A DNA stretch of 32,000 nucleotides from Pengzhenrongella phosphoraccumulans (GTDB taxonomy: Bacteria; Actinomycetota; Actinomycetes; Actinomycetales; Cellulomonadaceae), in the NCBI RefSeq assembly GCF_045689905.1, contig NZ_CP144210.1, positions 357,240 to 389,239 on the forward strand, written 5' to 3'. Positions within the stretch are counted from its first letter, which is position 1; each line of letters begins with the position of its first letter. Made by a program: the position numbers and the translations under genes. Below, in pieces: positions 9,424 to 32,000 of the stretch. The notes beneath the pieces are model-generated. The model did not search any database. It had not been told where the DNA came from and saw nothing but the letters and a program-made list of their open reading frames with translations.

Positions 9424-10086
9424 ATGTCCCTCGCGACCTATACCGGCGTGCTCGACCTCACCGCGGGAGCTTTCCTGCTCACCGCGGTGCTCATCGTGTG
9501 GCGCCGCGAGCTCCGCTCCATCGTGCACCTGCTGGCCTGGCAGGGCGCGGCCCTCGCCGCGATCCCGCTCACCGAGGGGCTCTACCAGCGCGACCCCGGC
9601 CCGGTGATCGTCGGGCTCGTCGTGCTCGCGCTGCGCGCCGGGGTGCTGCCGGTCCTGCTCCTGCGTGCGGTGGGCACCGCCGACAACGAACGTCGCGAGA
9701 GCACGCCGCTGGTCAACACGACGTCCTCCCTGCTGATCACGGCCGCGCTCACCGTCCTGGCGTACGCGGTCACCCGGCCGATCATCGCGCTCGACCCGAC
9801 ACCGGCCACCCGCGCGGTCCCGGCCGCGTTCGCCGTGATCCTCATCGCGCTCTTCGTGATGGTCAGCCGGCGGCGCGCGCTCTCGCAGGCGGTCGGGTTC
9901 CTCATGCTCGACAACGGCATCACGGCCACGGCCTTCCTCATCACCGGCGGCGTCCCGCTGATCGTCGAGCTCGGCGCGTCCCTCGACGTGCTGTTCGCGG
10001 TCTTCGTGCTGGGACTGCTCACCGGCCACATGCGTCGCGCCTTCGGTGGCACCGACCTCGACCAGCTACGGGAGTTGCGCGACTGA
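9424..10086 (+). CDS. HyfE/HycP-like small membrane subunit
   Basis: 220-aa multi-TM ORF in the position and size of HyfE / Rv0085-type proteins. Confidence 0.7.
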
Positions 10087-11555
10087 TGGGCCTTGTCCTG
10101 CTCGTACCGATCCTTGCCCCGCTCGTCGCCGCCGGCCTCGCCGCAGCGCTCGGGTGGCGCCGACTGACCGCCTACGTGACCCTCGCCGCCGCCCTGAGCG
10201 TGCTGGTCACGGGCATCCTGCTCGCCACCCGGGTCGAGTCCGGGGCGCGCTTCGCCGTCGACCACCTGCTGCGGGCCGACTCGCTCAGCGTCACCATGCT
10301 GCTGGTCATGGGGACGGTGGGCACGCTCGCGACCTGGGCCAGCGTCGGCTACATCGACGCCGAGCTGCGCGACGGGCACACCGACCGCCGCGGCGCGCAC
10401 CTGTACGGCGTGCTGCTTCCGCTCTTCCTCGCCGCGATGGCCCTGGCCGTGCTGGCGAACAACATCGGCGTCATGTGGGTGGCCATCGAGGCCACCACCG
10501 TGGCGACGGCGTTCCTCGTCGGCCACCGCCGCACCCGGTCCGCGCTCGAGGCGACCTGGAAGTACGTCGTGATCTGCTCGGTCGGGATCGCGCTGGCGTT
10601 CCTCGGCACCGTGCTGCTCTACTTCGCGAGCCTGCACGCCGGCGCCTCGAGCGCGCACGCGCTGGACATCGACACACTACTCAACAACGCGGCCCAGCTC
10701 GACCCGGACGTCACCCGCCTCGCGGCAGGGCTCCTGCTGCTCGGGTACGGCGCCAAGGCGGGGCTCGTGCCCTTCCACACCTGGCTCGCCGACGCCCACA
10801 GCCAGGCTCCCGCGCCGGTCTCCGCGCTGATGAGCGGGGTGCTGCTCTCGGTCGCGTTCGCGTGCCTGCTACGCGTGAAGTCGGTCGTCGACCTCACGCT
10901 CGGCACCGGGTTCCTGCGGACCGGGCTGCTCATCGTCGGGCTGCTGACGCTGCTGATCGCCGCGTCGTTGCTCGTGGTCCAGACGGACTTCAAGCGCATG
11001 CTCGCCTACTCCTCGATGGAGAACATGGGCCTCGTCGCGATCGCCGCGGCTGCGGGCACCGAGCTCGCGATCGCCGCGCTGCTGCTGCACGTGCTGGCGC
11101 ACGGTATCGGCAAGTCGCTCGTGTTCCTCGCCTCCGGTCAGCTGCAGGCCGCCCACGAGTCGACCGCGATCAGCGCGGTCACCGCCGTCCTCTCGCGCTC
11201 ACGTCTCGTCGGCGTGTCGTTCGCCGTCGGACTCGCGGTCCTGATCGGGCTGCCCCCGTTCGCGATGTTCGCGAGCGAGCTGTCCATCTCGCGCGCCCTC
11301 GCGGGGGCCAACCTCGCCTGGGTGCTCGGCGCGACGCTGCTCCTCATGACCGTCGCGTTCACCGCCCTGGTCCGCAACGGCAGCCGCATGCTGCTCGGCA
11401 CGCCGCAGCCGAACGCCCCGGTGATCGCCCTGCCGGGCACGATCGCCGCAGCGCTCGTCACGGGGATGATCCTCAGCCTGGCCCTCGGGCTGAGCGCGGG
11501 CCCCCTCACCCAGCTCTTCCAGTCCGCTGCCACCCAGCTCGGAGCAAGCTCATGA
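10086..11555 (+). CDS. HyfF/HycQ/NuoN-like antiporter-type membrane subunit
   Basis: ATG 10086 overlaps the upstream stop by 1 nt (TGATG). A 489-aa polytopic protein with WLADAHSQAPAPVSALMSG and LAYSSMENMG motifs. Confidence 0.85.
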   Translation: MGLVLLVPILAPLVAAGLAAALGWRRLTAYVTLAAALSVLVTGILLATRVESGARFAVDHLLRADSLSVTMLLVMGTVGTLATWASVGYIDAELRDGHTDRRGAHLYGVLLPLFLAAMALAVLANNIGVMWVAIEATTVATAFLVGHRRTRSALEATWKYVVICSVGIALAFLGTVLLYFASLHAGASSAHALDIDTLLNNAAQLDPDVTRLAAGLLLLGYGAKAGLVPFHTWLADAHSQAPAPVSALMSGVLLSVAFACLLRVKSVVDLTLGTGFLRTGLLIVGLLTLLIAASLLVVQTDFKRMLAYSSMENMGLVAIAAAAGTELAIAALLLHVLAHGIGKSLVFLASGQLQAAHESTAISAVTAVLSRSRLVGVSFAVGLAVLIGLPPFAMFASELSISRALAGANLAWVLGATLLLMTVAFTALVRNGSRMLLGTPQPNAPVIALPGTIAAALVTGMILSLALGLSAGPLTQLFQSAATQLGASS

Positions 11556-13093
11556 CCGTCCCCTTCGCCCCGACCGGCGTTCCCGTCGGCGTCCACCGCA
11601 CCAGCCGGACGCTGCTGCCGGAGGAGATCGCCGACCAGTCCGCCTGGCTGCTCGCGGCCGGATTCCGCCTCGGCCTCGTCGCCGCGCACGACGACGGCGC
11701 GACGCTGCGGGTCGTCTACCTGTTCCTCGCCGGCAGCCCCGACCGCCGCGTCGAGCTGCAGGTCCGGCTGCCCGCCGACGACCCGCGGATCGGCTCGCTC
11801 GCCCCGCTGTCGTTCGCGGCCTCCCGGTTCGAGCGCGAGATGCACGACCTCTACGGCATCGTGCCGGTGAACCACCCGCTCCCCCGCCGCATGGTGCGCC
11901 ACGCGCACTGGCCGGCGGGCTGGTACCCGATGCGCCACGACGCCGGCGACCCGCCGCCGTTCCACGAGACCGGCGCCGACGCCTACCCGTTCATCGCGGT
12001 CGAGGGTGACGGCGTCTACGAGATCCCCGTCGGCCCGGTGCACGCCGGTGTCATCGAGCCGGGCCACTTCCGCTTCTCCGTCGTCGGGGAGTCCGTGCTC
12101 AAGCTCAAGGCCCGACTGTGGTTCACCCACCGCGGCGTCGAGAAGCTCTTCGAGGGGCTCGAGGCCACCGAGGCGATCCACCTGGCCGAGCGCATCAGCG
12201 GGGACACGTCCGCCGCGCACGCGCTCGCCCACACGCTCGCCGTCGAGGATGCGCTCGGCATCACGATGACCGAGCCGGCGCAGCGGCTGCGCGCGCTCTT
12301 GGTCGAGCTCGAGCGCCTCTACAACCACGCCGCCGACCTGGGGGCGCTGGCCAACGACGTCGGCTTCTCGCTCGCCAACGCGCACGCCCAACGGATCCGG
12401 GAGCAGCTCCTGCGGATCAACCTCGCGGTCACGGGCCACCGGCTGCTGCGCGGCGCGATCCGCCCCGGCGCGGTCGAGCTCCTCAGTTTGCCGGACCCCG
12501 CCGAGCTCGACCGGATCGCCGCGGACCTCGCGGAGGTCGTCGAGCTCTCGCTCGAGAACTCGGTGATCCGCGAGCGGTTCACCGGCACGGCCAGGCTCAC
12601 CCGCACGCAGGCGCACGACCTCGGCTGCCTCGGCTACGTCGCCCGCGCGAGCGGGGTGGCCACCGATGCGCGGATCGATCACCCGACGGTCCCGCTCGCG
12701 GTGACCCCCGCGACCGGGGCCGACGGCGACGTGCTCGCGCGCTACCTGATCCGACGCGACGAGTTCGCCACGTCGATCCGGATCGTCAAGGCGCTCATCC
12801 GGTCGGCCGGACCGCTCCGTTTCCTGGCTGCGCCGGACGGGACCGGAACGACCGACCCGACCGAGGAGACCGCTGCGGTCCGCAGCGGCGTCGGCATCGT
12901 CGAGGGCTGGCGCGGGACGATCGTGCACCGCGTCGAGGTGGCCCCCGACGGGCGCCTGACGCGCGCGAAGATCGTCGACCCGTCGTGGTTCAACTGGCCG
13001 GCCCTGCCGCTGGCGATGGCCGACACGATCGTGCCGGACTTCCCCGTCACCAACAAGAGCTTCAACCTGTCCTACGCCGGCAACGACCTGTAG
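11552..13093 (+). CDS. HycE-like fused NuoC-NuoD 'large subunit' lacking all Ni-Fe cysteine ligands (Ehr-type)
   Basis: ATG 11552 overlaps the upstream stop (ATGA). The NuoC-like N-terminal domain (FEREMHDLYGI) is followed by a NuoD/HycE-like domain (GPVHAGVIEPGHFRF, RLWFTHRGVEKL). The RxCGxCxxxH position reads RISGDTSAAH (12191-12220). The C-terminal DPCxxCxxR position reads NLSYAGNDL (13064-13090). Confidence 0.9.
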   Translation: MTVPFAPTGVPVGVHRTSRTLLPEEIADQSAWLLAAGFRLGLVAAHDDGATLRVVYLFLAGSPDRRVELQVRLPADDPRIGSLAPLSFAASRFEREMHDLYGIVPVNHPLPRRMVRHAHWPAGWYPMRHDAGDPPPFHETGADAYPFIAVEGDGVYEIPVGPVHAGVIEPGHFRFSVVGESVLKLKARLWFTHRGVEKLFEGLEATEAIHLAERISGDTSAAHALAHTLAVEDALGITMTEPAQRLRALLVELERLYNHAADLGALANDVGFSLANAHAQRIREQLLRINLAVTGHRLLRGAIRPGAVELLSLPDPAELDRIAADLAEVVELSLENSVIRERFTGTARLTRTQAHDLGCLGYVARASGVATDARIDHPTVPLAVTPATGADGDVLARYLIRRDEFATSIRIVKALIRSAGPLRFLAAPDGTGTTDPTEETAAVRSGVGIVEGWRGTIVHRVEVAPDGRLTRAKIVDPSWFNWPALPLAMADTIVPDFPVTNKSFNLSYAGNDL

Positions 13094-13123: not shown

Positions 13124-13459
13124 TCAGCCGTGCCGGCGCCGGCCGCTCGCGACGCCACCACCGGCGCCGCCCGAGAAGATCATGCTCACGCCGAGCATGA
13201 AGCCGAAGTTGTACCAGTTGCCGTTGTTGTGGATCTCGTAGATGCCCACGTCCGGGTTGAACAGCGACACGATGAACGTGATCGGGCTGATCAGGCCCTG
13301 CCACAGGCCGAGCCAGAAGCCCGCGACGTCGGGGTCGCCGACCCCGGCCGCCTCGTTCGGCCCCGCCGCGCACGCGGCGAGCCCGAGCACGCCGACCACC
13401 ACCATCACTGCGACGAGCAGCACCGTCCGCACCCGCCGGGTCCGCCTCAGTTGCGCCAT
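13124..13459 (-). CDS. small putative lipoprotein / membrane protein
   Basis: 111-aa ORF with a basic N-terminus, hydrophobic core and lipobox-like LGLAAC, followed by two hydrophobic segments. No family recognised. Confidence 0.5.
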   Translation of the reverse strand: MAQLRRTRRVRTVLLVAVMVVVGVLGLAACAAGPNEAAGVGDPDVAGFWLGLWQGLISPITFIVSLFNPDVGIYEIHNNGNWYNFGFMLGVSMIFSGGAGGGVASGRRRHG

Positions 13460-13470
13460 CCCCGCAGTCT

Positions 13471-13561
13471 GTCAGCCGAGCACGTAGTCAGCAGGACGCA
13501 GCGTCAGCAGGATGCAGCGTCAGCAGGACGCGTCAGCAGGACGCAGCGTCAGCCGAGCACG
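13471..13561. repeat. minisatellite: four ~16-bp units (gtcagcaggaYgcagc) bracketed by a 14-bp direct repeat (gtcagccgagcacg)
   Basis: Flanking copies are at 13471-13484 and 13548-13561. The second contains the stop codon and last codons of the 13549..14355 gene. Internal units are 13487-13502, 13503-13518, 13519-13531 (truncated) and 13532-13547. Confidence 0.9.
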
Positions 13562-14355
13562 ACCGCGGGCGACGGCACGGCGAGCGAGTTGATCGCCGCG
13601 AGCTGCCGGCCCGACCGGTAACGCAGCGCGGCCAGCCGCTGCGGGCTCAACCGCTCGCACACCCAGTCCCAGTGCAGCGAGCACCAGTCGCCCGGGAGCA
13701 ACGGACCGGCCAGCCCGAGCCCGTCCACCGCCGTGACCACCTGCTCGACGACGACCGGCCCCTCCCGCAGCGCGCGGCCGTCCCACTGCAGGGGGCGGCT
13801 GCGCACGAGGGCGCGGTCGTCGACGACCTCGATCACGCGGCCCCACCGGATCCGGCACCGGTCGAGCACCCGGAGCGGCTCGTCGACCCGGCCGCCACGC
13901 AGCAGCCCGAGCCAGGGGTAGACACCGAACACGTGGAAGCTGTGATGGGGCTGCGCGCCCGGCACGGCCGCGGCGAGCAGCGACCACGACCGCCCGGCGC
14001 GCGCGCGGAACCGGTCCTCGATCGACCCGCCCATCATCGACAACGGCACCCGGTCGAGCAGCACGTTGCCCACCCAGTACGCCTCGACCACGCGCGCGTC
14101 GAGGGGATCGGCGATGCCGTTCGCCGCGGCGATCAGCTCGAGGTACGGCCACGCGCCCGTGAACCCGCGCGCGAGGTGACGCAGATCGCCGTCGTCCACC
14201 CCACTGCTGGCCTGCTCGAGCAGCTGACCGGCGGCGTCCGGGCCGCAGAAGCCCAGCTCGTTGGGCGGGTAGGCGTACCGGGCGAACAGCAGAGGCCCGC
14301 TCGTCCGCGCGCCGGCGGCCGCCCGGCCCATGCCGCCGACGCCGTCAGCCACCAT
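13549..14355 (-). CDS. conserved hypothetical protein, last gene of the hydrogenase operon (possibly DUF6390-like)
   Basis: 268-aa ORF with high GC3. The motif FARYAYPPNELGFCGP resembles a family I recall next to actinobacterial hydrogenase maturation genes, but the family name is uncertain. Confidence 0.55.
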   Translation of the reverse strand: MVADGVGGMGRAAAGARTSGPLLFARYAYPPNELGFCGPDAAGQLLEQASSGVDDGDLRHLARGFTGAWPYLELIAAANGIADPLDARVVEAYWVGNVLLDRVPLSMMGGSIEDRFRARAGRSWSLLAAAVPGAQPHHSFHVFGVYPWLGLLRGGRVDEPLRVLDRCRIRWGRVIEVVDDRALVRSRPLQWDGRALREGPVVVEQVVTAVDGLGLAGPLLPGDWCSLHWDWVCERLSPQRLAALRYRSGRQLAAINSLAVPSPAVVLG

Positions 14356-19100: not shown

Positions 19101-20252
19101 CTAGCTGCGGCCCGCAGCCGGTTGCGGGGTCCAGCGCAGCGCTGCGGCCTCCGCGGTGATGTCGATCGCGGCCGGGCACCAGGTGATGCACCGGCCACAA
19201 CCCACGCAGCCCGACATGCCGAACTGGTCCTGCCAGGCCCCGAGCTTGTGCGTGATCCACTGCCGGTAGCGCGACCGGATCTCGGGTCGGATGCTGCCGC
19301 CGTGGATGTAGGAGAAGTCCTCCGAGAAGCACGAGTCCCACACGCGATGACGCTCGGCCACCTCGCCGGTGAGATCGGCCACGTCCTCGACCGAGGTGCA
19401 GAAGCAGGTCGGGCACACCAACGTGCAGTTGGTGCACGCGAGGCAGCGCGACGCGACGTCGTCCCAGCGCGGGCTGTCGACGCTGGCGTACAGCAGGTCC
19501 TTGATCCCGTCGGTGTCGAGCGTTCGCCCCATGTGCGCGACGGACCAGGCGACGACGTCGTCGGCCGCCTGGACGTCCTCGTCGGGCGCCTCAGCCGTCG
19601 GGACCTCTGCGAGGACCTCCGCGCCTCGCTCGGTGCCGACATCGACGAGGAACCGGTGTGGGCCGTCGTCGAGCAGCTCTGTCAGCGCAAGGTCGTAGCC
19701 GGCGTCCGGCCGCGGACCGGTCCCCATCGAGGCGCAGAAGCAGGTGCCGCCAGGATCGGTGCAGGTCACCGCCACGACGAACGCCCCGGACCGCCTCGCC
19801 GCGTAGCGGACGTCCGTGTGGTCGCGACCGAGCAGCACGACGTCGTGGATGGCCAGGGCGTGCAGGTCGCACGAGCGGACACCGAAGAGCGCGTACGGCC
19901 TGCCGTCGCCGGCAGCCGGGTCGCCCGGTTCGACCTCGTTGACCGTGAACTCCTCGCCCGTGCGCCGACCGCGCCAGATGAGCTCCTCGGCCGGGAACAG
20001 CACCGGCTTGGGTGACTGCGCGCCCGCGGCGTACCCGAAGAGCGCGTCATCGTTGCGGCGCCGGAGCCGGTAGTGCGCGGCATCCTGCTCGTCACCCCAT
20101 CCGCGAGGCAGGTCGTCGATCGTGGCGATGGGTGCGTGCACGATGGCGCCGTCCCGAACGGTCGGTCCCATCACGCCGTAGCCGCGAGCACTGAGGGCAT
20201 CGATCAAGCCCTGGAGCCCGGCAAGATCCAGCAACCGCTCCTCGTGCACCAT
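19101..20252 (-). CDS. hyhB: group 3b hydrogenase beta subunit (4Fe-4S dicluster protein)
   Basis: ATG at 20252 (MVHEERLLD). [16 protein letters not shown] and [12 protein letters not shown] ferredoxin motifs. The 952-aa ORF-track version is an artefactual extension antisense to the HNH gene. Confidence 0.85.
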
Positions 20253-20310
20253 GAGATGCCTCCCCGTCGAGTCCCTACCCACGCTTGCACGCGGTGGTGA
20301 GTCCGATAAA

Positions 20311-20324
20311 GGGACCTTTGTCGC
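20311..20324. promoter_or_regulatory. DosR/DevR-like box (proximal), GGGACCTTTGTCGC
   Basis: Matches 11 of 14 positions of the core GGGAC-TWWA-GTCCC. Centred about 65 bp upstream of the hyhB start. Confidence 0.35.
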
Positions 20325-20365
20325 ATACCTCCCGCGATCGGCGAGGGAGAGGCGGGATGACGGCG

Positions 20366-20379
20366 GGGACTCGAGTCCC
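20366..20379. promoter_or_regulatory. DosR/DevR-like box (distal), perfect palindrome GGGACTCGAGTCCC
   Basis: Both GGGAC / GTCCC half-sites are intact with the canonical 4-bp spacer. Only the two central W positions differ from the consensus. It lies 55 bp centre-to-centre from the proximal box. Confidence 0.45.
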
Positions 20380-20520
20380 GCGCCTGCATCGGCCTTGCAT
20401 GTGGGCGGCGCGCGGTTCGCTGCCGTGCTGCAGCTGTGCGCACGATGCCCCGGGAATCGCGCCAGATCATTGCATCGGAACCCTTGACCGTTTCGTCCTG
20501 GTTCGGTACGATTAGCACGG

Positions 20521-22188
20521 GTGTTCGATCTTCTGACTCGGTTCTGGCGACTCGATGGCGAGGGGGCGGCTGTGGACGTGACCGGTGCGCCTCTCGCCAG
20601 CATGGTGGCCGCCACCCACGGTCCTGGGGTGGCCGACGGCGGTTCGGTCGCGCGACTCGCGTGCGGGGTGGGCGGCGAGGTGGCCGCGTTGCGCGCGGCC
20701 GCTGCGGCGTTGGCCGCCGCTGCCGCGGGGGCGCCCCAGTGGGCCGGGCCCGAGCGGCAGAGCATCCTCACCGAGCTGAACCTGACCATCGACACCCTGC
20801 AGGCGATCCGGTCGAGCGTGCTCATCGCCGAACGCGACGCCGAGACGTGGCGCGGGTCCGGGGACCCGACCTTCGAAGCGTGGGTCGGACGCAAGACCCG
20901 CCTCGGCAAGCGCGGCGGGGCCGCGCGGGTGCGCCAGGCCGCCGAGCTCGACACCGTCCCCGACGTGCGCGAGGCCGTGACCGAGGGGCGTATCCCGCTG
21001 GAGCACGCCGGGATCATCGCCAAGGTCGCCGCCACCGGCACCCCCGCCCAACGCGAAGCCGCCACCTCTCCCGCCGGGCAGGAGACGTTGTTGGGGTTGG
21101 CTGCCGGGCAGGACGCGGGCACGTTCGCGCGCACCGCGGACCGGTGGGCCGCCCACGTGGACCCCGCCGGCCTGGAACGCGACCACCAGGCCCAACGCCG
21201 CGCGAGGTTCCTGCACCTGACCCACACCCCGCACGGCACCCACCTCAAAGGGCTGCTCGACTCGATCACGGGCCACCAGGTCGCCCTCGCCCTGGAAGCG
21301 GCCACCCCGCGACCGGCCGCCGACGACGACCGCGACTTCGGCCAACGCAACGCCGACGCCCTGGCCACCATCGCCGACCGCATCCTGGCGTCGGTGGACA
21401 CCAAACCCGGCGCGCACGTACCACCCCAGGTCTCCGTCATCCTCACCGAAGCGACCTGGGCCGCCGCCCAAGCCGACCGCGACCGCCGCCGCACCGCCCT
21501 AGCCACCTTCGGCTTCACCACCGACGACGACGGCGAGGTTTCCGGGCGCAGCGACACGACGAACGACTCGCGGTGCGGGGCGGGACCTGCGGTGCTCCCC
21601 GTCCTGGGGTACGCGCCGGCGACCCTCGAGGACGGCACACCCGTGCCCGCCAGTGAGCTCGGCGTGATCATGTGCGACTGCGAACTGACCCGCATCGTCA
21701 TCAACGCCGACGGAGTCCCCCTAGACCTCGGGCGCACCGAACGACTGTTCACCGGACCCCAACGCAAAGCCGTCATCGCCCGCGACCGCGAATGCGCCTG
21801 GCCCGACTGCCACGCCCACGCCCGCTGGTGCCACATCCACCACCTCGCCTGGTGGCAACGCGACGGCGGAGCCACCTCCGTGGAAAACGGTGCGTTGCTG
21901 TGCAACTTCCACCACCACGAAGTCCACCGACTCGACCTCACCCTGACCCGCCACACCACACGCGACTACAACGCCATCACCGGCATCGCCCGCGTCTGGT
22001 ACCAATTCACCGACCCCACCGGACGACAACTCCGACAGACCGAACCACCCGGGATCCAACCACCCGCACCACCACGACCACCCGAACCACCGAACGAGCT
22101 CGACCTCACTCAGGTCGATGCGCCGATCGACGCGCGCGAGATCTACCCCGACGACCTCTTCCAGACGTCAGACGCTCGCGTTGCCTGA
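20521..22188 (+). CDS. DUF222 / HNH endonuclease-domain protein (REP13E12-like)
   Basis: 555 aa with a GTG start. The C-terminal HNH region reads RDRECAWPDCHAHARWCHIHHLAWWQRDGGATSVENGALLCNFHHHEVH. The long N-terminal DUF222-type region is typical of actinobacterial 13E12-repeat proteins. Confidence 0.85.
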   Translation: MFDLLTRFWRLDGEGAAVDVTGAPLASMVAATHGPGVADGGSVARLACGVGGEVAALRAAAAALAAAAAGAPQWAGPERQSILTELNLTIDTLQAIRSSVLIAERDAETWRGSGDPTFEAWVGRKTRLGKRGGAARVRQAAELDTVPDVREAVTEGRIPLEHAGIIAKVAATGTPAQREAATSPAGQETLLGLAAGQDAGTFARTADRWAAHVDPAGLERDHQAQRRARFLHLTHTPHGTHLKGLLDSITGHQVALALEAATPRPAADDDRDFGQRNADALATIADRILASVDTKPGAHVPPQVSVILTEATWAAAQADRDRRRTALATFGFTTDDDGEVSGRSDTTNDSRCGAGPAVLPVLGYAPATLEDGTPVPASELGVIMCDCELTRIVINADGVPLDLGRTERLFTGPQRKAVIARDRECAWPDCHAHARWCHIHHLAWWQRDGGATSVENGALLCNFHHHEVHRLDLTLTRHTTRDYNAITGIARVWYQFTDPTGRQLRQTEPPGIQPPAPPRPPEPPNELDLTQVDAPIDAREIYPDDLFQTSDARVA

Positions 22189-23530: not shown

Positions 23531-23944
23531 TCACTTCGGCAACGCCCGAACGCGGTTGTTGCGCGCGTCGTGCGTGAGCTCCACGAGACCGAGCGCCTCG
23601 AGCAGCGGAGGCAGGTACATGCCGAACCGGCCGCGATAGCCGTTGCGCAGCCCGTACCACCCGCCCACGGGGTTGTCCGACGACCGGCCCCACGCCTCGA
23701 CGGTTCCGTCCGCGACGGGCTTCTTCTCGTCGGCCGCACCCAGATCAACCCAGTCACCCTGCTCGCGCAGCCACGCAGTCAGGTCCTCGATGGCTCGGGC
23801 GTGGTACTTCAGCGTCGTCGATCCGACCTGGCACACGAGCGCGGGCGGATCGGCCTGGTCATCGACGTACATCGTGTAGCCGGACGTGCCCGGTGCCGTC
23901 GTGAGCGCCCACGGATCGGCCTTGGTACCACTTCCCTGAGCCAT
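23531..23944 (-). CDS. conserved hypothetical protein
   Basis: ATG 23944 is preceded by GAGAGGA. This 137-aa ORF (DPWALTTAPGTSGYTMY..LVCQVGSTTLKYH..GGWYGLRNGYRGRFGMYLPPLLEALGL) resembles a widespread actinobacterial hypothetical. The family name is not recalled. Confidence 0.55.
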   Translation of the reverse strand: MAQGSGTKADPWALTTAPGTSGYTMYVDDQADPPALVCQVGSTTLKYHARAIEDLTAWLREQGDWVDLGAADEKKPVADGTVEAWGRSSDNPVGGWYGLRNGYRGRFGMYLPPLLEALGLVELTHDARNNRVRALPK

Positions 23945-24106
23945 CTTGTGGTTCCTCTCGCGTGGTCCGTGAGTTCGCCCGCCTGCCACCGTCTCGTGCA
24001 GGGGTGCCTCGACATTACCGATCCCGGACGCGGCCGGACAGTGTTTGGCGAGCTCGGATCCGGTCCGTGAGCGGCCGGTCCACGGCCCACCGGGACACCG
24101 GACTAA

Positions 24107-24122
24107 ATACCCCACGGGGTAC
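24107..24122. promoter_or_regulatory. CsoR/CstR-type operator ATACCCC-AC-GGGGTAC
   Basis: GC-core palindrome TACCCC-N2-GGGGTA, about 125 nt upstream of the SQR-like gene. A nearly identical copy lies at 26547-26562. This resembles the C4/G4-tract operators known for CsoR-family repressors. Confidence 0.6.
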
Positions 24123-24124
24123 AT

Positions 24125-24138
24125 GGGACCTTGGTCAC
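24125..24138. promoter_or_regulatory. DosR-like box GGGACCTTGGTCAC
   Basis: Matches 11 of 14 core consensus positions and is identical at 12 of 14 positions to the proximal hyh box (20311-20324). It lies 2 nt from the CsoR-type operator. Confidence 0.3.
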
Positions 24139-24246
24139 TCACCAACCGGATCCGAGGTTCCTAGCGTGGAGTGCGAGGTCAAGTCACCGATGGGTTCATC
24201 ACAAAACTGCATTCGACACATCACCGCAGATGCGAAGGAGCAAGCC

Positions 24247-25512
24247 GTGAAGAAGCGACTACTGGTGCTGGGAGCCGGCACCGCCGGCACGATGATCGTC
24301 AACAAGCTGCGACACCGCCTGAGCTCCGCCGAATGGAGCATCACGGTCGTCGACCGCGACGACGTCCACCCCTACCAGCCGGGCTACCTGTTCCTGCCGT
24401 TCGGCATGCTCGCCCCCGAACAGATCACGCGCTCACGGCACACGTTCCTGCCCGACGGGGTGGACTTCGTCATCGCCGACGTCGACCGCGTGGACGGCCC
24501 GGCGAGCACGGTGACCCTCACTGACGGGCGCACGCTGGAGTACGACTACCTCGTGATCGCGTCGGGCACGACGCCCCGGCCCGACCAGACCCCCGGGATG
24601 CTCGGGGACGAGTGGCAGCGCAGCATCTTCGACTTCTACACGTTCGAGGGGGCCCAGAAGCTGTCCGCGGCGCTCAAGTCGTTCGACCACGGCCGGCTCG
24701 TCGTGCACATCACCGACATGCCGATCAAGTGCCCGGTCGCCCCGCTCGAGCTGACGTTCCTCGCGGACGCGTGGCTGCGGGAGCGGGGCCTGCGGGACCG
24801 CGTCGAGATGGTCTACGTGACCCCGCTGCCCGGCGCGTTCACCAAGCCGATCGCCTCCGAGGCTCTGGGGTCGATGCTCGACGAGCGCAAGATCGTGGTC
24901 GAGCCCGACTTCCTCGTCGAGCACATCGACAACGAGCGCAAGACCCTGGTCTCGTACGACGAGCGCGAGGTGCCGTTCGACCTGCTGATCACGATCCCGC
25001 TCAACATGGGGGCCGACTTCGTGGCCCGGTCCGGGCTGGGCAACGAGCTCAACTACGTCCCGGTCGACAAGCAGACGCTGCAGTCCACCGCCCACCCGAA
25101 CATCTTCGCGGTCGGTGACGCGTCGGACATCCCGGCATCCAAGGCGGGCTCGGTCGCGCACTTCTCGGTCGAGATCTTCGTCGACAACTTCCTGCAGCTC
25201 ATCGCCGGCAAGCCGATGACGGGCTCATTCGACGGGCACGCGAACTGCTTCATCGAGACGGGGAACGGCAAGGGCCTGCTGATCGACTTCAACTACGAGA
25301 CCGAGCCCTTGACGGGCAAGTACCCGTTGCCGGTCGCCGGGCCGTTCGACCTCCTCAAGGAGACCCGGGCGAACCACCTCGGGAAGGTCGCGTTCCGCTG
25401 GATGTACTGGAACATGCTGCTCCCCGGCCGTCCGATCCCGCTGCCCGCGCACATGTCCATGGTCGGCAAGACGCCGGCGAACGGCACCGCCAAGAAGCTC
25501 GCCACCAAGTAG
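24247..25512 (+). CDS. SQR/FCSD-like FAD-dependent pyridine nucleotide-disulfide oxidoreductase
   Basis: GTG 24247 lies 6 nt after GAAGGAG. The N-terminal Rossmann motif is LLVLGAGTAGT. Only two Cys are present, in IKCPVAP and ANCFIETG, positions that resemble the redox Cys pair of sulfide:quinone reductases. GDASDIPASK is an FAD motif. The upstream ATG 24190 is rejected because GC3 is low there. Confidence 0.75.
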   Translation: MKKRLLVLGAGTAGTMIVNKLRHRLSSAEWSITVVDRDDVHPYQPGYLFLPFGMLAPEQITRSRHTFLPDGVDFVIADVDRVDGPASTVTLTDGRTLEYDYLVIASGTTPRPDQTPGMLGDEWQRSIFDFYTFEGAQKLSAALKSFDHGRLVVHITDMPIKCPVAPLELTFLADAWLRERGLRDRVEMVYVTPLPGAFTKPIASEALGSMLDERKIVVEPDFLVEHIDNERKTLVSYDEREVPFDLLITIPLNMGADFVARSGLGNELNYVPVDKQTLQSTAHPNIFAVGDASDIPASKAGSVAHFSVEIFVDNFLQLIAGKPMTGSFDGHANCFIETGNGKGLLIDFNYETEPLTGKYPLPVAGPFDLLKETRANHLGKVAFRWMYWNMLLPGRPIPLPAHMSMVGKTPANGTAKKLATK

Positions 25513-25527
25513 AGGAGTAAGACCACC

Positions 25528-25842
25528 ATGCCCGTGACCACGCTCAACGGCCACCAGATCCACGTCAACGACGAGGGCTTCCTCACCGACCCGAAGGAGT
25601 GGGACGAGGAGCTGGGCGACGTGCTCGCCGCTCAGATCGGCATCACCATGACCGACGAGCACTGGAAGGTCGTGCACTACCTGCGCGCGGACTTCGAGAC
25701 CCAGGGCGAGACGGCCACCCTGCGCCGTGTGTCCACCAACGGCGGCATCCCGGTCAAGGAGCTCTTCGCGCTGTTCCCGCAGAAGCCCGCCAAGAAGATG
25801 GCCTACATCGCGGGCCTGCCCAAGCCGGTGGGCTGCGTCTGA
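25528..25842 (+). CDS. TusE/DsrC-family sulfur-relay protein (single C-terminal Cys)
   Basis: GAGGAG RBS. 104 aa ending ...GLPKPVGCV, the family's penultimate-Cys tail. No second Cys lies about 10 residues upstream, so it is TusE-type rather than DsrC-type. Confidence 0.85.
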   Translation: MPVTTLNGHQIHVNDEGFLTDPKEWDEELGDVLAAQIGITMTDEHWKVVHYLRADFETQGETATLRRVSTNGGIPVKELFALFPQKPAKKMAYIAGLPKPVGCV

Positions 25843-25900
25843 CCACCCCCGCCCGCCACCCCGCCTGCCCCGCCAGTCCTTCTGAGAGGAAACGCTCGTC

Positions 25901-26413
25901 ATGACCACCAACACGGAACCGGCCATCGTCCCCAGCTTCGACACGAGCGCGAGCGAGGGTCGCAAGCTCGCCATCATCTGCTCCAAGGGGAACCTGGACA
26001 TGGCCTACCCGGCCCTGATCCTGGCGAACGCGGCCCTCGGCGAGGGCGTGGAGACCCACCTGTTCTTCACCTTCTGGGGCTTCGACATGATCAACAAGAA
26101 GACGATGGGCGATCTGAAGTTCACGATGCTCGGCAACACCGCCACGCACATGCCCCAGGGCCTGGGCGGGCTGCCGGGCATGACTGCCATGGCGACCTCG
26201 CGGCTGAAGAAGTCCATCGCCGACCTCGACGTCCCGGAGGTGCCCGAGTTCCTCGACCAGATCGTGGCCTCGGGCGGGCACCTGTGGGCCTGCCGGCTCT
26301 CGGCCGACATGAACCACCTGGAGGCGGCCGACCTCTACGACGACGTCGAGGGGATCATCAGCGCGAGCGACTTCATCGAGAAGACCGACGGCGCCCAGCT
26401 GATGTTCATCTAG
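25901..26413 (+). CDS. DsrE/DsrF-like family sulfurtransferase-like protein
   Basis: 170 aa with RKLAIICSKG, FFTFWGF and HLWACRLSADM, as in DsrE-like proteins found in cst/yrk-type sulfur clusters. Confidence 0.78.
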   Translation: MTTNTEPAIVPSFDTSASEGRKLAIICSKGNLDMAYPALILANAALGEGVETHLFFTFWGFDMINKKTMGDLKFTMLGNTATHMPQGLGGLPGMTAMATSRLKKSIADLDVPEVPEFLDQIVASGGHLWACRLSADMNHLEAADLYDDVEGIISASDFIEKTDGAQLMFI

Positions 26414-26434
26414 GTCCTCGACCTCCGCGCACCC

Positions 26435-26476
26435 GCGCCCGGCCCCCGGCACAGCACACCGCCGGGGACCGGGCGC
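26435..26476 (+). terminator. strong GC hairpin after the DsrE-like gene
   Basis: GCGCCCGGCCCCCGGC (26435-26450), a 10-nt loop, then GCCGGGGACCGGGCGC (26461-26476). The stem is 16 bp with one mismatch and starts 22 nt after the stop codon. Confidence 0.55.
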
Positions 26477-26546
26477 GCACCGCGTGCCGGGTCACACCCC
26501 GGGCGGGGCTGCACGGAAGCAGGTTCGTCATCAACTCGCCAGATAG

Positions 26547-26562
26547 ATACCCCCCGGGGTAT
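26547..26562. promoter_or_regulatory. CsoR/CstR-type operator ATACCCC-CC-GGGGTAT
   Basis: Perfect 7-bp inverted arms. It overlaps a TATAGT -10-like hexamer (26560-26565) that lies only 11 nt before the rhodanese ATG (26577). Confidence 0.65.
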
Positions 26563-26576
26563 AGTGACGGCGACGA

Positions 26577-26975
26577 ATGGAGCACACCTTGACCAACGCA
26601 TCCGCCCCCGAATCCACCCTCCTCGATCGGCTCCGCCGCCTGTTCGGCGGCACGCCGAGCGACGGCCGTCTCGGCTCGTCGGTCAACGCCGCACGCGCGC
26701 TCGAGCTGGTGAAGGACGGCGCGAGCCTGCTGGACGTGCGCGAGTCGAGCGAGTGGAAGTCGGGTCACGCCCCGCGCGCCCTGCACATCCCGCTGGGCCA
26801 GATCGACCAGGCCGCCCGCCGGCTGAAGAAGGACCGCCCGGTCGTCGTGGTGTGCGCGAGCGGGATGCGGTCGCGCACCGCGGCCAAGCACCTGCGGGGT
26901 CTCGGTTTCGAGGCCGCGAGCCTGTCGGGCGGCATGCCCGCGTGGCAGCGCGCCGGCGGGGAGGTCAAGCGATGA
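26577..26975 (+). CDS. single-domain rhodanese (sulfurtransferase)
   Basis: 132 aa with LLDVRESSEWKSGHAP, the active-site loop CASGMRS, and LSGGMPAW. Confidence 0.85.
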   Translation: MEHTLTNASAPESTLLDRLRRLFGGTPSDGRLGSSVNAARALELVKDGASLLDVRESSEWKSGHAPRALHIPLGQIDQAARRLKKDRPVVVVCASGMRSRTAAKHLRGLGFEAASLSGGMPAWQRAGGEVKR

Positions 26976-28764
26976 CCACGCCGACCGAGACCACGATCAT
27001 CACCGAGACCGACCCCTCGATCGAGGAGGGCCGACGCCGGATCGTCATCGTCGGAGGCGTCGCCGGGGGCATGAGCGCCGCGGCGCGGGCCCGCCGGCTC
27101 GACGAGCACGCCGAGATCATCGTGCTCGAGCAGGGCGACTACGTGTCCTTCGCGAACTGCGGCCTGCCGTACCACCTATCCGGGGAGATCACCCGGCGCG
27201 ATGCGCTGCTGCTGCACACCCCCGCCTCCCTGGCCGCCTCCTTGAACCTGGACGTCCGCACCGGAAACCGGGTCGTCGAGATCGCGCGCGGGGCGCAGGA
27301 GGTCGTCGTCCAGACGGCCGAGCGCACCTACCGCCTCGCCTACGACGCACTGCTGCTCGCGCCCGGCGCGGTCCCGGTGCGGCCGCCGATCACCGGCCTG
27401 GACCACCCCTCGGTGCACTCGCTGCGCACGGTTCCCGACGTCGATGCCCTGCGAGGAACCGTCGACGGCCTGCTCGCGGATCGTCCCGCCGGGCCCCCGC
27501 CCCGCGCGCGGTCGTCGTCGGCGCCGGCTTCATCGGGCTCGAGGCCGTCGAGGCGCTGGCCTCGCGCGGGCTCCAGGTCCACCTGGTGGAGCTCGCCGAT
27601 CACGTCCTGCCTCCCCTCGATGCGGAGCTGGCCCCGCTGCTCGCGGCCGAGCTCGCCCACCACGGGGTAGACCTGCGCCTGGGCGTCTCGGCCCAGTCCG
27701 TGTCCCCCGTCGAGCCTGCGGCCACCGAGTCGAGCGAGACCGGCCCGACCGGCGTCGTCACGGTCACCCTGTCCGACGGCGTGTCCCTCACCGCCGACCT
27801 CGTCATCGTCAACGTCGGGGTCCGCCCGGCGAGCACCCTCGCCCGGGAGGCCGGTCTCGACCTCGGGGCCACGGGCGCGATCGTCGTCGACGGCGACCAG
27901 CGCACCTCCGACTGGCGCATCTGGGCCGTCGGCGACGCGGTCGAGGTCACCCACGCAATCACGGGCACGACGGGACCGGTGCCGTTGGCCGGTCCGGCCA
28001 ACCGCCAGGGCCGACGCGCCGCCGACTCCATCTGCGGGCACGCCACCACTCCTCAGGCCGCCGTACTGGGCACCGCGATCGTGCGGGTGTTCGACCTCAC
28101 CGCGGCGACCACCGGCGCCAACCAGGTCACGCTGCACCGCGCGGGCATCGCCCACGAGGTCGTGCACCTGCACGCGGGTCATCACGCGGGGTACTTCCCC
28201 GGCGCCGAGACCGTGCACCTGGTCGCGAGCTTCGCGCCCGACGGCACGCTGCTCGGTGCCCAGGCGGTCGGCCGGGCGGGGGTGGACAAGCGCATCGACG
28301 TGCTCGCGACCGCGATCCGGGCGGGGATGACCGCCGATGACCTCGCCGAGCTCGAGCTCGCCTACGCCCCGCCGTACGGTTCCGCGAAGGACGTGGTGAA
28401 CATGCTCGGGTTCGTGGCCCAGAACGTCCTGGACGGGACGATGCCGCAGTGGCAGGCCTGGGACCTGGACAAGGTCATGGCGAACTCGCTGGTGCTCGAC
28501 GTGCGTTCGCGCGCCGAGTACGCCGAGGGGCACCTCGACGGCGCCCTCAACATCCCCCACCTCGAGCTGCGCGAGCGGCTCGAGGAGGTCCGGGCCGCAG
28601 CCGACGGTCGAGAGATCAGCGTGCACTGCGCGAGCGGCGTGCGGTCCTACCTCGCGACTCGCATCCTGATCGGCGAGGGCTTCGACGCCCGCAACCTCTC
28701 CGGCGGGTGGTTCACCCTTCAGGCGGTCCTCGCCGCATCGCGATCCCTCGTGGCCGTCGTGTGA
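26972..28764 (+). pseudogene. CoA-disulfide/persulfide reductase with C-terminal rhodanese domain (CoADR-RHD), interrupted by a 1-nt frameshift as assembled
   Basis: ATG 26972 overlaps the rhodanese stop (ATGA). The N-terminus reads IVIVGGVAGGMSAA and SFANCGLPY (redox Cys). After ..DGLLADRPAGP the conserved sequence (AVVVGAGFIGLEAVEALASRG...) continues in the -1 frame. The junction is in the C-runs at 27494-27503. The C-terminal rhodanese has CASGVRS, with the stop at 28764. One extra base would give about 597 aa. Confidence 0.85.
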
Positions 28765-28765
28765 G

Positions 28766-28802
28766 TAACTCCTACATTTGATCGGTTCCATTAACGGAGT
28801 TA
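28766..28802. promoter_or_regulatory. inverted repeat TAACTCC-N23-GGAGTTA in the fur upstream region
   Basis: A relatively AT-rich 48-nt intergenic region separates the CoADR stop from fur ATG 28813. Arms are at 28766-28772 and 28796-28802. Function is unclear (operator or weak terminator). Confidence 0.25.
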
Positions 28803-28812
28803 TCGTAGGCGC

Positions 28813-29256
28813 ATGATCACCTCGGCCGACCTCCTGCGCGACCGGCACCTTCGGGTGACGGCCGCGCGGGTGGCCGTGCTCGAGGTGCTTGCCGAACGGA
28901 GCCACCTCACCACCGACCAGGTGGCCACCGGGGTACGCGCCCGGATCGGCTCCGTCTCGACGCAGGCGAGCTATCACGTGCTCGACACCCTCGCCGCCGC
29001 CGGTCTGGTGCGCCGCATCGAGGTGGCCGGCAGCGCGGCGCGGTACGAGCGTCGCGTCGGAGACAACCACCATCACCTCGTGTGCCGCTCGTGCGGCGAG
29101 GTGTCCGACGTCGATTGCGCGACCGCGTCGGGCCCGTGCCTCACCACCACCGCGCCCGCGGGTTACGAGATCGACGAGGCCGAGGTCGTCTTCTGGGGCA
29201 CCTGCCCCCGCTGCCAGACGCCGTCGGCCCCCACCCCTATCACCACCAGGAGCTAG
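28813..29256 (+). CDS. Fur-family transcriptional regulator (probably peroxide-responsive, PerR/CatR/FurA-like)
   Basis: RVTAARVAVLEVL wHTH, the DNHHHLVCRSCGEV motif, and a second CPRC pair (structural Zn CxxC x2). It is tightly linked to dps. Confidence 0.8.
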   Translation: MITSADLLRDRHLRVTAARVAVLEVLAERSHLTTDQVATGVRARIGSVSTQASYHVLDTLAAAGLVRRIEVAGSAARYERRVGDNHHHLVCRSCGEVSDVDCATASGPCLTTTAPAGYEIDEAEVVFWGTCPRCQTPSAPTPITTRS

Positions 29257-29258
29257 AC

Positions 29259-29735
29259 ATGACCCAGCAGACGATCGACATCGGGATCCCCGCCGCCAAG
29301 CTCACGGACATCGTGGCGGGCCTGTCGAAGGTGCTCGCCGACTCGTACACGCTGTACCTGAAGACCCACAACTACCACTGGAACGTCGTCGGCCCGATGT
29401 TCCTGTCGCTGCACGCGATGTTCGAGGTCGAGTACACCGAGCTGGCCCTGGCGGTCGACGAAATTGCCGAGCGCATCCGCGCGCTGGGCGCCCCGGCCCC
29501 GGCGAGCTATCACCAGTTCGCCGCACTGACCGTCGTGCCCGAGGACACCGACCTCCCCGACGCGCAGGAGATGGTGCGCCGCCTGGTGTCGGCGCACGAA
29601 GCCACGGCGCGGACCATCCGTACGCTGATGCCGCTCGCCGAGGGGGCACCGGACCAGGTCACCGTCGACCTGCTCGTCCGACGCCTCGACGTCCACGAGA
29701 AGACCGCCTGGATGCTCCGCAGCATCCTCGCCTGA
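29259..29735 (+). CDS. dps: Dps-family DNA-protection / ferroxidase protein
   Basis: ATG lies 2 nt after the fur stop, with a CAGGAG RBS. Motifs YTLYLKTHNYHWNVVGPMFLSLHAMFEVEY and DEIAERIRALG are ferroxidase-centre motifs. Confidence 0.9.
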   Translation: MTQQTIDIGIPAAKLTDIVAGLSKVLADSYTLYLKTHNYHWNVVGPMFLSLHAMFEVEYTELALAVDEIAERIRALGAPAPASYHQFAALTVVPEDTDLPDAQEMVRRLVSAHEATARTIRTLMPLAEGAPDQVTVDLLVRRLDVHEKTAWMLRSILA

Positions 29736-30697: not shown

Positions 30698-31306
30698 CTA
30701 GTCAGTGCGGTACACCTCGACGACAGCATCGAGCGCCGTGGCCGACCCGACAGGGCGTTCGCGCCGTTCGGCCCGACGGACCTCGAGCCCGCCGAGCCCG
30801 GCGAGGTCGGCTACGACGTCCGCCGCGGTGAAGAGGATGGCGGGGTCGGTCGGGCCGCCTACGCCCTCGGCGGGGTTGGTGGAGTCGTGCCCGACGACGA
30901 GCAGGAGGCCGCCGACCGCCACCGCGGCAGCGGCAACCCGCACGAGCTCGCGCCGCTGGGCCGCCGGGAGGTGGACGTACATCACGACCACGGCGCCGCT
31001 GGAGCGCGGCTCCGGGACGTGGTGCAGCAGGTCCGCGCGCACCCACGTCACGCGCCCGACCGTCTCGGGGGCGTGCGCCGCCTGGACCGCCTGACCCTTG
31101 CGGATCGCTTCGCGGGAGAAGTCGACCGCCGTGACGTCCCAGCCCCGGCGGGCGAGCCACAGGGTGTTGCGCCCCTCCCCCGCCCCGAGGTCGAGCGCTA
31201 CCCCGGGTGGCCGATCCGCCAGGGCCTCGACCAACCATCGGTTGGGCTCTGGGGTCCAGATGAGTTCATCCGTCGCGTAGCGCACGTCCCAGGCGGCTGC
31301 ATCCAT
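30698..31306 (-). CDS. class I SAM-dependent methyltransferase (TehB/thiopurine-MT-like small-molecule type)
   Basis: Motif I is ALDLGAGEGRNTLWLARRGWDVTAVDFS. Post-I and later motifs are present. 202 aa. Confidence 0.78.
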   Translation of the reverse strand: MDAAAWDVRYATDELIWTPEPNRWLVEALADRPPGVALDLGAGEGRNTLWLARRGWDVTAVDFSREAIRKGQAVQAAHAPETVGRVTWVRADLLHHVPEPRSSGAVVVMYVHLPAAQRRELVRVAAAAVAVGGLLLVVGHDSTNPAEGVGGPTDPAILFTAADVVADLAGLGGLEVRRAERRERPVGSATALDAVVEVYRTD

Positions 31307-31318: not shown

Positions 31319-31660
<342 letters not shown>

Positions 31661-32000
31661 TCAGGACACGGACTGGCGGGCGGCGTCCTGCGCGGCGATC
31701 TGGGCGCGGACGTCGTCCATGTCCAGGCCCTTGACCCCGCTGATGACCTGCTCGAGCGCGACAGCGGGCAGCGCACCGGGCTGGGAGAACACGAGCACGT
31801 TCTCGCGGAACACCATCAGTGTCGGGATCGACGTGATGCCGGCCTGGCCGGCCAGGACCTGCTCGGCCTCGGTGTCGACCTTGCCGAACACGATGTCCGC
31901 GTGCTCCTCGGACGCCTTGTCGAAGATGGGCGCGAACTGGCGGCACGGGCCGCACCACGCGGCCCAGAAGTCGACCAGGACGATGTCGTTGCCCCGGATC
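31661..32000 (-). CDS. thioredoxin (5' end beyond window)
   Basis: The minus-strand translation from the window edge reads IRGNDIVLVDFWAAWCGPCRQFAPIFDK...GITSIPTLMVF. The WCGPC active site is present, and the stop is at 31661. Confidence 0.85.
   Translation of the reverse strand, partial: IRGNDIVLVDFWAAWCGPCRQFAPIFDKASEEHADIVFGKVDTEAEQVLAGQAGITSIPTLMVFRENVLVFSQPGALPAVALEQVISGVKGLDMDDVRAQIAAQDAARQSVS

Follow-up and report, generated by a model that had tools for sequence, protein, structure and literature searches.

Two sulfur operons of Pengzhenrongella phosphoraccumulans share a palindrome predicted to be the operator of a CstR-type persulfide regulon

The cst operon of Staphylococcus aureus (tauE, cstA, cstB and sqr) encodes the multidomain sulfurtransferase CstA, the persulfide dioxygenase (PDO)-rhodanese CstB and TauE. 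A persulfide-sensing repressor of the CsoR family, CstR, acts in this species on genes for a sulfide:quinone oxidoreductase (SQR) and sulfurtransferases (PMC8643695, PMC11672702). In Enterococcus faecalis and Streptococcus mitis, a CsoR-family dithiol repressor controls the cst-like operon rhdA-coaP-rhdB, which includes a rhodanese and a CoA-disulfide reductase (CoADR)-rhodanese and has an AT-flanked palindrome of a C-tract and a G-tract in its promoter (PMC8643695). Here we describe a 32,000-nucleotide stretch of the P. phosphoraccumulans genome (contig NZ_CP144210.1, hereafter the window), in which the same 16-bp palindrome precedes an SQR-TusE-DsrE2 operon and a rhodanese/CoADR-rhodanese operon and a CsoR-family gene is found downstream of both. 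Judging from sequence, both palindromes are probably operators of a CstR-type repressor of the actinomycete x-C-x-C clade (here x-C-G-C), namely the 87-aa protein encoded by this gene and/or a near-identical paralogue, and we propose that the mechanism is persulfide-responsive.

The actinomycete x-C-x-C cluster (cluster 3 in the sequence similarity network of Fakhoury et al. 2021) includes ScCsoR of Streptomyces coelicolor and Rv1766 of Mycobacterium tuberculosis and consists of candidate persulfide sensors without the wedge Asn (PMC8643695; PMC11672702). The operator of ScCsoR is ATACC-N6-GGTAT, from which polysulfide releases the protein by way of its two Cys residues (PMC7533328). The window resembles this system (Lu et al. 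2020, PMC7533328) in several respects: the regulator is an actinomycete protein with two Cys and no Cu-ligand His, the sites have the same N6 spacing and lie at and upstream of promoters (-9 and -48 in S. coelicolor), and the regulon includes a rhodanese gene. The remaining gene content differs. The ScCsoR regulon comprises a PDO, a rhodanese, a TauE-type sulfite exporter and the regulator, whereas the window has a type III SQR with TusE and DsrE2, the rhodanese/CoADR-rhodanese pair and a regulator gene that stands behind a thioredoxin gene. The Cu(I)-sensing CsoR of Streptomyces lividans shares the fold and the logic of a GC-tract operator bounded by TAC and GTA, which is bound by two tetramers, but has C-H-C copper ligands and targets copZA (PMC3902906). 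In the Streptomyces Cu-CsoR consensus, ATATACCCCTNAGGGGTATAT, five bases form the centre; this corresponds to TACC-N7-GGTA, one spacer base more than in the N6 sites of the window (PMC3902906).

Compared with the E. faecalis and S. mitis systems, the window has Gly in place of the wedge Asn of the Firmicute x-C-N-C pattern, its CoADR-rhodanese gene is frameshifted, and it adds an SQR and a TusE/DsrE module that the cst-like operons lack. The S. mitis operator, ATACCCTTATGGGGTAT, also has one central base more than the window sites (PMC8643695). Where S. aureus has CstA, CstB and TauE, the window has separate TusE and DsrE2 carriers after a type III SQR, and no dioxygenase was found. The initial annotation of the window had drawn a parallel to the cst operons with an altered composition, and this description holds: neither a PDO nor a TauE protein is present among the window open reading frames (ORFs) scanned, TusE and DsrE2 are added, and a thioredoxin gene accompanies the regulator. 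A further likeness is to the operon of Methylacidiphilum fumariolicum SolV, which combines a type III SQR, a small sulfur carrier and DsrE2, and is H2S-induced, being up-regulated in sulfide-adapted cells (PMC10205796). That operon is verrucomicrobial, its middle gene is TusA-like where the window has TusE/DsrC, and no CstR-type operator has been described for it (PMC10205796).

The two palindromes, ATACCCCACGGGGTAC and ATACCCCCCGGGGTAT, stand exactly where the initial annotation had placed them (Table 1), and its claim that they are the only two such sites was borne out by a scan of the 32-kb window for exact TACCCC-N2-GGGGTA. The pattern TACCCCNNGGGGTA matched exactly 2 times in 32 kb and 0 times in 100 dinucleotide-preserving shuffles. 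Under a first-order Markov model of the window, which has 71% G+C, 1.6e-4 sites are expected and the probability of finding two or more is ~1e-8. Allowing up to 2 mismatches added one match, the intragenic TACGCCGAGGGGCA at 28519. We also scored the window with a position weight matrix from 150 orthologous sites; the palindromes scored 29.0 and 24.9 bits, and every other position stayed under 8 bits. The consensus of the family, A-TACCCC-NN-GGGGTA-T, is identical to the window sites, and the C4-N2-G4 core agrees with CsoR-family operators in the literature (PMC7533328, PMC8643695, PMC3902906), as had been proposed.

One recurring sequence resembles the operator pattern and was rejected as an operator. 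Several SQR homologues (e.g. L083:1309, L091:1477 and L103:3651; L numbers denote loci from other genomes and metagenomes) contain an intragenic TACCAGCCGGGGTA, which codes for the P-Y-Q-P-G-Y of SQR and is a coding mimic. Its equivalent in the window, TACCAGCCGGGCTA at 24373-24386 (...GGGCTA), does not match the operator pattern. The mimic was removed from the site counts that underlie the weight matrix, the neighbouring genes, the SQR promoter offsets and the -10 fusions; it is still included in the raw TACC-N6-GGTA counts, that is, the 80-locus total, the spacing control and the counts upstream of SQR.

Further evidence comes from linkage between the palindrome and the regulator in other genomes. 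Among the matches listed for the regulator, we took 80 loci from other actinobacterial species that encode an orthologue (66-85% identity). In the 1.42 Mb that these loci span, TACC-N6-GGTA occurs 126 times (raw count, coding mimics included) against 1.67 expected, a 75-fold enrichment. The enrichment is specific to the spacing: the other spacings from N3 to N10 gave 1-9 sites each, with 9 for N7. The kilobase upstream of the regulator gene accounts for 72 of the 126 sites, and at least one is present there in 60 of the 80 loci.

For 162 pooled loci, we then identified the first gene that lies no more than 300 bp from each site. These genes encode rhodanese-domain proteins in 72 cases (a cluster that includes CoADR-rhodaneses and YgaP-like membrane rhodaneses), thioredoxin or the regulator in 69 and type III SQR in 18. 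The remainder are singletons, and no copper-efflux, PDO or TauE cluster is present among them. In the close relatives L083 and L084 the CoADR, SQR-TusE-DsrE2 and thioredoxin-regulator units are contiguous; both loci have a site before the SQR and thioredoxin units, and L084 also has one before the rhodanese-CoADR unit. The co-conservation of motif and genes that the initial annotation had suggested checking is seen in 160 independent loci, where the motif is linked to the regulator clade, rhodanese/CoADR-rhodanese, thioredoxin and type III SQR. The same survey bears on its alternative that the palindrome might be found only before copper-efflux genes: no copA or copZ lies beside any site examined. 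Its reading of the locus as a CstR-type regulon is thus supported by the motif, the regulator and the linked gene families across genomes, as far as sequence can support it.

The regulator belongs to the CsoR family (PF02583, 83.9 bits against a cutoff of 22.8), all of its PDB matches are CsoR-family chains, and it is 100% identical to an 87-aa P. phosphoraccumulans protein. The initial annotation had rightly located the gene but had extended it over 31319-31651; the start is most likely 31582. An ATG or GTG is found at the MELDP start in 95% of 90 orthologues from other genomes, and we favour the 87-aa product over the 110-aa ORF because the orthologue starts align there. Cys35, Gly60 and Cys64 are each 100% conserved in these 90 orthologues. 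In pairwise alignments to solved structures, Cys35 and Cys64 correspond to the two Cys of CsoR and CstR proteins, and Gly60 is aligned to the copper-ligand His of GtCsoR and to the wedge residue Asn55 of SpCstR. The His that was noted as missing is thus replaced by an invariant Gly.

By these residues the regulator has the CstR-type x-C-x-C pattern, in which X and Z are both Cys and Y is not His. It lacks the Firmicute x-C-N-C pattern, since Gly60 stands where SpCstR has its wedge N55. Nor does it have the features of Cu(I)-sensing CsoR proteins: the His ligand is replaced by Gly, and copper-efflux genes are absent beside the ~160 sites. The protein therefore fits the actinomycete x-C-x-C cluster and not the Firmicute CstR clusters, a provisional assignment made from taxonomy, from an x-C-x-C motif that lacks Asn and from operators of identical spacing. 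Its best solved relative, with a single sequence as with a profile, is SpCstR, the CstR of Streptococcus pneumoniae (7MQ1-3).

The source genome encodes more than one such protein. A single 4.96-Mb record contains at least three CstR-like paralogues (P0008, P0036 and P0117) that are 85-100% identical; at least two of these are further copies, 85% identical to the window regulator. In the metagenome contigs L001 and L002, which carry the P0117 sequence, one palindrome lies 47 nt upstream of this sequence and a second precedes an adjacent CoADR gene. The repressors may be redundant, which could also explain why a broken CoADR-rhodanese copy is tolerated. The features of the window that bear on the regulon are collected in Table 1.

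Table 1. Positions of the predicted operators, promoter elements and genes (numbered from the first nucleotide of the window).
Feature	Position	Strand	Basis or remark
Operator 1 (predicted)	24107..24122	none	ATACCCCACGGGGTAC; located by sequence
Upstream promoter element GGGACCTTGGTCACTC	24125..24140	+	family consensus GGGACCTTnGnCCCTG
Predicted -10 hexamer TAGCGT of SQR operon	24162..24167	+	TAGCGT/TACCGT kept almost invariably upstream of SQR
Type III sulfide:quinone oxidoreductase, 421 aa, GTG start, AAGGAG ribosome-binding site	24247..25512	+	NF049943, PF07992
TusE/DsrC-family sulfur carrier, 104 aa	25528..25842	+	PF04358 112.6 bits; TIGR03342 81.9 bits (cutoff 53.5)
DsrE/DsrF-like (DsrE2-like) sulfur carrier, 170 aa	25901..26413	+	PF13686 97.4 bits
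-35-like TCGCCA	26536-26541	+	paired with TATAGT, 18-nt spacer
Operator 2 (predicted)	26547..26562	none	ATACCCCCCGGGGTAT; located by sequence
-10 hexamer TATAGT fused to operator 2 right arm	26560-26565	+	sigma70-like promoter prediction
Single-domain rhodanese, 132 aa, active-site CASGMRS	26577..26975	+	PF00581 67 bits
CoA-disulfide-reductase/rhodanese fusion (CoA-persulfide-reductase-like)	26972..28764	+	domain models; frame broken
Membrane protein, 323 aa	29758..30729	-	no Pfam or NCBIfam match
SAM-dependent methyltransferase (TehB/TPMT-like)	30698..31306	-	PF13649, PF03848, PF05724; downstream of regulator
CsoR-family repressor, actinomycete CstR-like clade, 87 aa	31319..31582	-	PF02583; alternative upstream ATG 31651
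Thioredoxin gene (WCGPC), cut by window end	31661..32000	-	sequence; directly upstream of regulator, same orientation

Family models confirmed the genes that had been named downstream of the two palindromes, type III SQR/TusE/DsrE and rhodanese/CoADR-rhodanese. The SQR protein matches NF049943 over its full length (3-408) with 632.7 bits against a cutoff of 525; this model is named for a selenoprotein subtype, and the window gene has no in-frame TGA. The TusE/DsrC-family protein ends in ...PKPVGCV with a single Cys and is thus TusE-like and not of the two-Cys DsrC type. The third protein scores 87.7 bits against the DsrE2 model NF047629, under its cutoff of 210. The triad of SQR, TusE and DsrE2 is conserved in nearly all of the 80 metagenome loci retrieved with the SQR protein.

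Site 1 had been described as lying in the promoter region of this operon. It does, but upstream of the core promoter and not over it. Operator 1 ends 2 nt before the GGGACCTTGGTCACTC element, and its TACC starts 54 nt before the predicted -10 hexamer. The arrangement of GGGACCTTnGnCCCTG followed after 21 (20-22) nt by TAGCGT/TAnnnT recurs in 37 of 76 SQR upstream regions, whether or not the palindrome is present. In L158 and L160 the start codon follows 10 nt after TAGCGT, as in leaderless genes; because of this distance, and because TAGCGT fits the actinobacterial TAnnnT pattern, we read it as the -10 hexamer. The predicted start of SQR transcription would then be near 24174, and the GGGACCTTGGTCACTC element would be centred at about -42 from it.

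Other readings of this upstream region were rejected. A short leader peptide between site 1 and SQR (ATG 24123 to TAG 24162) is broken by 1-nt indels among orthologues. The GGGACCTTnGnCCCTG element is too far from TAGCGT (21-25 nt) to serve as a sigma70 -35 element, and extracytoplasmic function (ECF) and sigma54 readings of it were dismissed by eye on their spacing. Sigma54 is also not known from Actinobacteria, a further ground against the latter. An Rfam scan of 23900-26700 at E<=1 gave no match. RNAalifold found weak pairing (-5 kcal/mol) in the SQR leader, between GCTTCC and the ribosome-binding site; if TAGCGT is the -10, the GCTTCC segment is not transcribed. Divergent from SQR is a DUF6855 gene (23531-23944, minus strand), an unrelated neighbour whose start at 23944 lies 163 nt from site 1.

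An exact site precedes SQR by no more than 300 bp in 17 of 75 loci, among them 8 of the 14 closest homologues, and 2 more of these 14 have a one-mismatch site at the same place. L030 is one of the six that have no site directly upstream of SQR; its site precedes an OsmC-like gene that in turn precedes SQR (region 13136-13695), so that the operator stands before an OsmC-SQR-TusE-DsrE2 unit. The same site sequence is found in L090 (position 896), ~560 bp upstream of SQR (1462). Measured from the SQR -10 hexamer, the palindrome takes only three offsets: -54, -12 and 0. The first (+/-1) is that of the window and 9 orthologous SQR loci. At -12 (L144 and L149) the -10 begins with the last TA of the palindrome, and at 0 (L051, L105, L109, L110 and L160) the left arm TACCnT is itself the -10. 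Three discrete placements on one conserved core promoter speak for repeated selection of the operator as a control on SQR.

These placements also allow a more tentative idea, to which we give rather less than even weight. Actinobacterial type III SQR operons may share a conserved promoter cassette in which the GGGACCTTnGnCCCTG element, centred near -41.5, is read by some factor, be it an activator or an unusual contact with RNA polymerase, and onto which the CstR-type operator was grafted independently at -54, -12 and 0. The window repressor would then block that factor and not RNA polymerase itself, and SQR expression would integrate two signals. In 20 palindrome-free loci with the cassette, no regulator gene is conserved beside it, all upstream ORFs being singletons.

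Site 2 has a different geometry. The right arm of operator 2 is fused to the -10 hexamer in GGGGTATAGT, and the promoter that contains it (TCGCCA-18-TATAGT, 26536-26565) is the sole sigma70-like prediction in 23700-29300. Because the operator arm and the -10 are fused, a bound tetramer would cover the -10 directly. Eleven of the 13 orthologous rhodanese/CoADR sites shown have the right arm fused to a TAnnnT (TATAGT, TATCGT, TATTCT and others), and in the same 11 an ATG follows 6-11 nt later, which indicates that these transcripts are leaderless or near-leaderless. Across all sites, 74 of 160 are fused to a TAnnnT on one side.

The CoADR-rhodanese gene behind this promoter is split, with an N-terminal part from 26972 to ~27490 in one frame and a C-terminal part (27502-28764) in another. 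Aligned to the intact orthologues L007, L084 and L010, it has a 1-nt deletion in the GGGCCCCCGCCCC run at ~27487-27500, which is either a homopolymer sequencing error or the mark of a pseudogene. Both domains and both Cys motifs (SFANCGLP and HCASGVRS) are present. A CoADR homologue of Georgenia daeguensis (L009, ~14154) appears as two abutting tblastn segments and may also have a frame break. A PerR-like Fur regulator and Dps are encoded 49 nt past the CoADR-rhodanese gene (28813-29735, plus strand). They lack a palindrome of their own, and the pair shows no synteny elsewhere; the second operon may read through into them.

The regulator gene starts 78 nt past the thioredoxin stop codon and is co-transcribed with the thioredoxin gene, with a promoter beyond position 32000. 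The order of thioredoxin then regulator, with a palindrome in front, is found in many orthologous actinobacterial loci. The thioredoxin may reset the sensor or reduce persulfides, a role to which the main text of PMC8643695 makes no reference. The methyltransferase gene is a probable member of the same operon, and its homologues adjoin regulators in L009, L068, L082 and L159. The membrane protein, whose N-terminal part is soluble and conserved and whose C-terminal transmembrane region includes GCTPC, is a possible and uncharacterised regulon member. Its homologues adjoin the regulator in L003-L007, L009 and L011, and in L007 the gene directly follows a palindrome.

We propose the following mechanism. 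The reduced, tetrameric repressor would bind ATACCCC-N2-GGGGTAT. At the rhodanese/CoADR-rhodanese operon, occupancy of GGGGTATAGT would block promoter recognition for a transcript with almost no leader. At the SQR-TusE-DsrE2 operon the repressor would sit at about -59, 2 nt before the conserved element of the -35 region, and would probably occlude this element or its reader. Sulfide oxidised to sulfane sulfur would lead to per- or polysulfidation of Cys35 and Cys64 and release of the repressor. Release would allow expression of SQR with its two carriers, of the rhodanese and CoA-persulfide-reductase pair and, by orthology, of the thioredoxin-regulator-methyltransferase-membrane protein operon. 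We infer the binding by the 87-aa protein, the start sites and the repression geometry, as well as persulfide as the inducer, which family membership and gene content suggest.

Several observations weigh against this account. The similarity to solved structures is not decisive, because SpCstR (58 bits) leads by a margin of 1 bit over 6AHX (57 bits), a protein with His at the position equivalent to the Cu ligand. The wedge Asn of Firmicute CstR is Gly here, and ScCsoR reacts differently from S. aureus CstR (PMC7533328, PMC11672702). The paralogues P0008, P0036 and P0117 have the same alpha-1 helix, which makes the assignment of sites to one gene ambiguous. There is no palindrome in the 78-nt gap between the thioredoxin and regulator genes, and autoregulation is seen in orthologues only. 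At the targets, 59 of 76 upstream regions of SQR homologues have no site, the centre of site 1 at about -59 from the predicted start is unusual for simple steric repression, and the CoADR-rhodanese gene is frameshifted as read.

Some of these points raise the question of which protein acts at the sites and what it senses. Another paralogue could bind both sites in vivo, with the 31319-31582 gene controlling its own thioredoxin-regulator-methyltransferase operon only. The 85-100% identity of the three proteins of one P. phosphoraccumulans record is consistent with this, as are the flanking sites and adjacent CoADR gene of P0117 in L001 and L002. With an identical DNA-reading alpha-1 helix, however, all three would be expected to recognise the same operator, and in the relatives L083 and L084 the SQR, CoADR and thioredoxin-regulator operons are contiguous and bear sites; we therefore consider such a division of labour possible but rather unlikely. 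It is less likely still that operators and repressor are as described and the signal is a general stress, thiol-oxidative or electrophilic (H2O2, disulfide or HOCl-type oxidants), the regulon being a thiol-redox repair set. The co-transcription of the regulator with thioredoxin, in the window and at many orthologous loci, would suit this, as would the PerR-like Fur regulator and Dps after the second operon. CstR also reacts quickly with H2O2 in vitro, and the oxidant profile of the actinomycete clade, which lacks the wedge Asn, may differ (PMC11672702). Yet the genes linked to sites overwhelmingly encode sulfane-sulfur enzymes and carriers (SQR, rhodanese, CoADR-rhodanese, TusE and DsrE) rather than peroxidases or proteins of general redox repair, neither Fur nor Dps has a site or synteny elsewhere, and ScCsoR, the closest studied relative, responds to polysulfide.

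A copper regulon, in which the palindromes would be operators of a Cu(I)-sensing CsoR, seems very improbable to us. The operators of Streptomyces Cu-CsoR are very similar GC-tract palindromes with TAC and GTA ends (PMC3902906), but their N7 spacing is not the N6 found here and is unenriched in the orthologous loci (9 against 126). The position of the His ligand is Gly in 90 of 90 clade sequences, copA and copZ lie beside no site, and no copper-efflux gene is present among the scanned ORFs in the rest of the window. A last alternative takes the palindromes for GC-rich inverted repeats that arose by chance, or for RNA hairpins (terminator remnants, for example), without a protein partner; it is effectively refuted by their enrichment, spacing and promoter offsets. 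Site 2 does lie 134 nt past the DsrE2 stop codon, where a 6-bp hairpin could form. Neither site, however, has a T-tract, a terminator prediction or an Rfam match, two sites in the window have a chance probability of ~1e-8, the 75-fold enrichment across 80 genomes depends on the spacing, and the sites keep fixed offsets from promoters.

With binding by a CstR-type repressor as the preferred explanation, the locus is a sound new example of a known sulfur-sensing switch and leaves the concept of persulfide sensing unchanged. The actinomycete CstR-like branch has thousands of members, among which ScCsoR of S. coelicolor alone has been studied experimentally. The window and ~160 related loci give this branch a testable regulon picture, made up of type III SQR-TusE-DsrE2, rhodanese/CoADR-rhodanese and thioredoxin-regulator units. 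They also provide an operator consensus, A-TACCCC-N2-GGGGTA-T, with defined promoter geometries and a one-base spacing rule that sets these sites apart from the Streptomyces Cu-CsoR consensus. The gene content suggests that Micrococcales of soil and cold environments handle sulfide with SQR, carriers and CoA-persulfide reduction and not with a PDO.

Elsewhere in the window are two gene sets that resemble hydrogenase systems. From 15717 to ~20100 on the minus strand, 4-8 kb from the SQR operon, four genes resemble those for the alpha, delta, gamma and beta subunits of an NAD(P)-dependent group 3b [NiFe] hydrogenase (sulfhydrogenase). All score under their equivalog cutoffs and none has a palindrome. 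A 952-aa ORF in this region (19101-21959) is probably over-extended: its ShyB/HydB match is limited to residues 655-935, and a DUF222 gene (20521-22188, plus strand) overlaps it on the opposite strand. On the plus strand at 5488-13093, a gene for an ArsR-family regulator (5488-5835) is followed by genes for a membrane subunit that is Hyf/Mrp-like (565 bits, hydrogenase 4 subunit B-like) and for a [NiFe] large-subunit protein in which NuoC-like and NuoD-like parts are fused; this looks like a complex of the group 4 membrane-bound hydrogenase type. Unrelated neighbours near the start of the window encode a PPK2 polyphosphate kinase (772-2091) and an Arr-type rifampin ADP-ribosyltransferase (2107-2667, minus strand).

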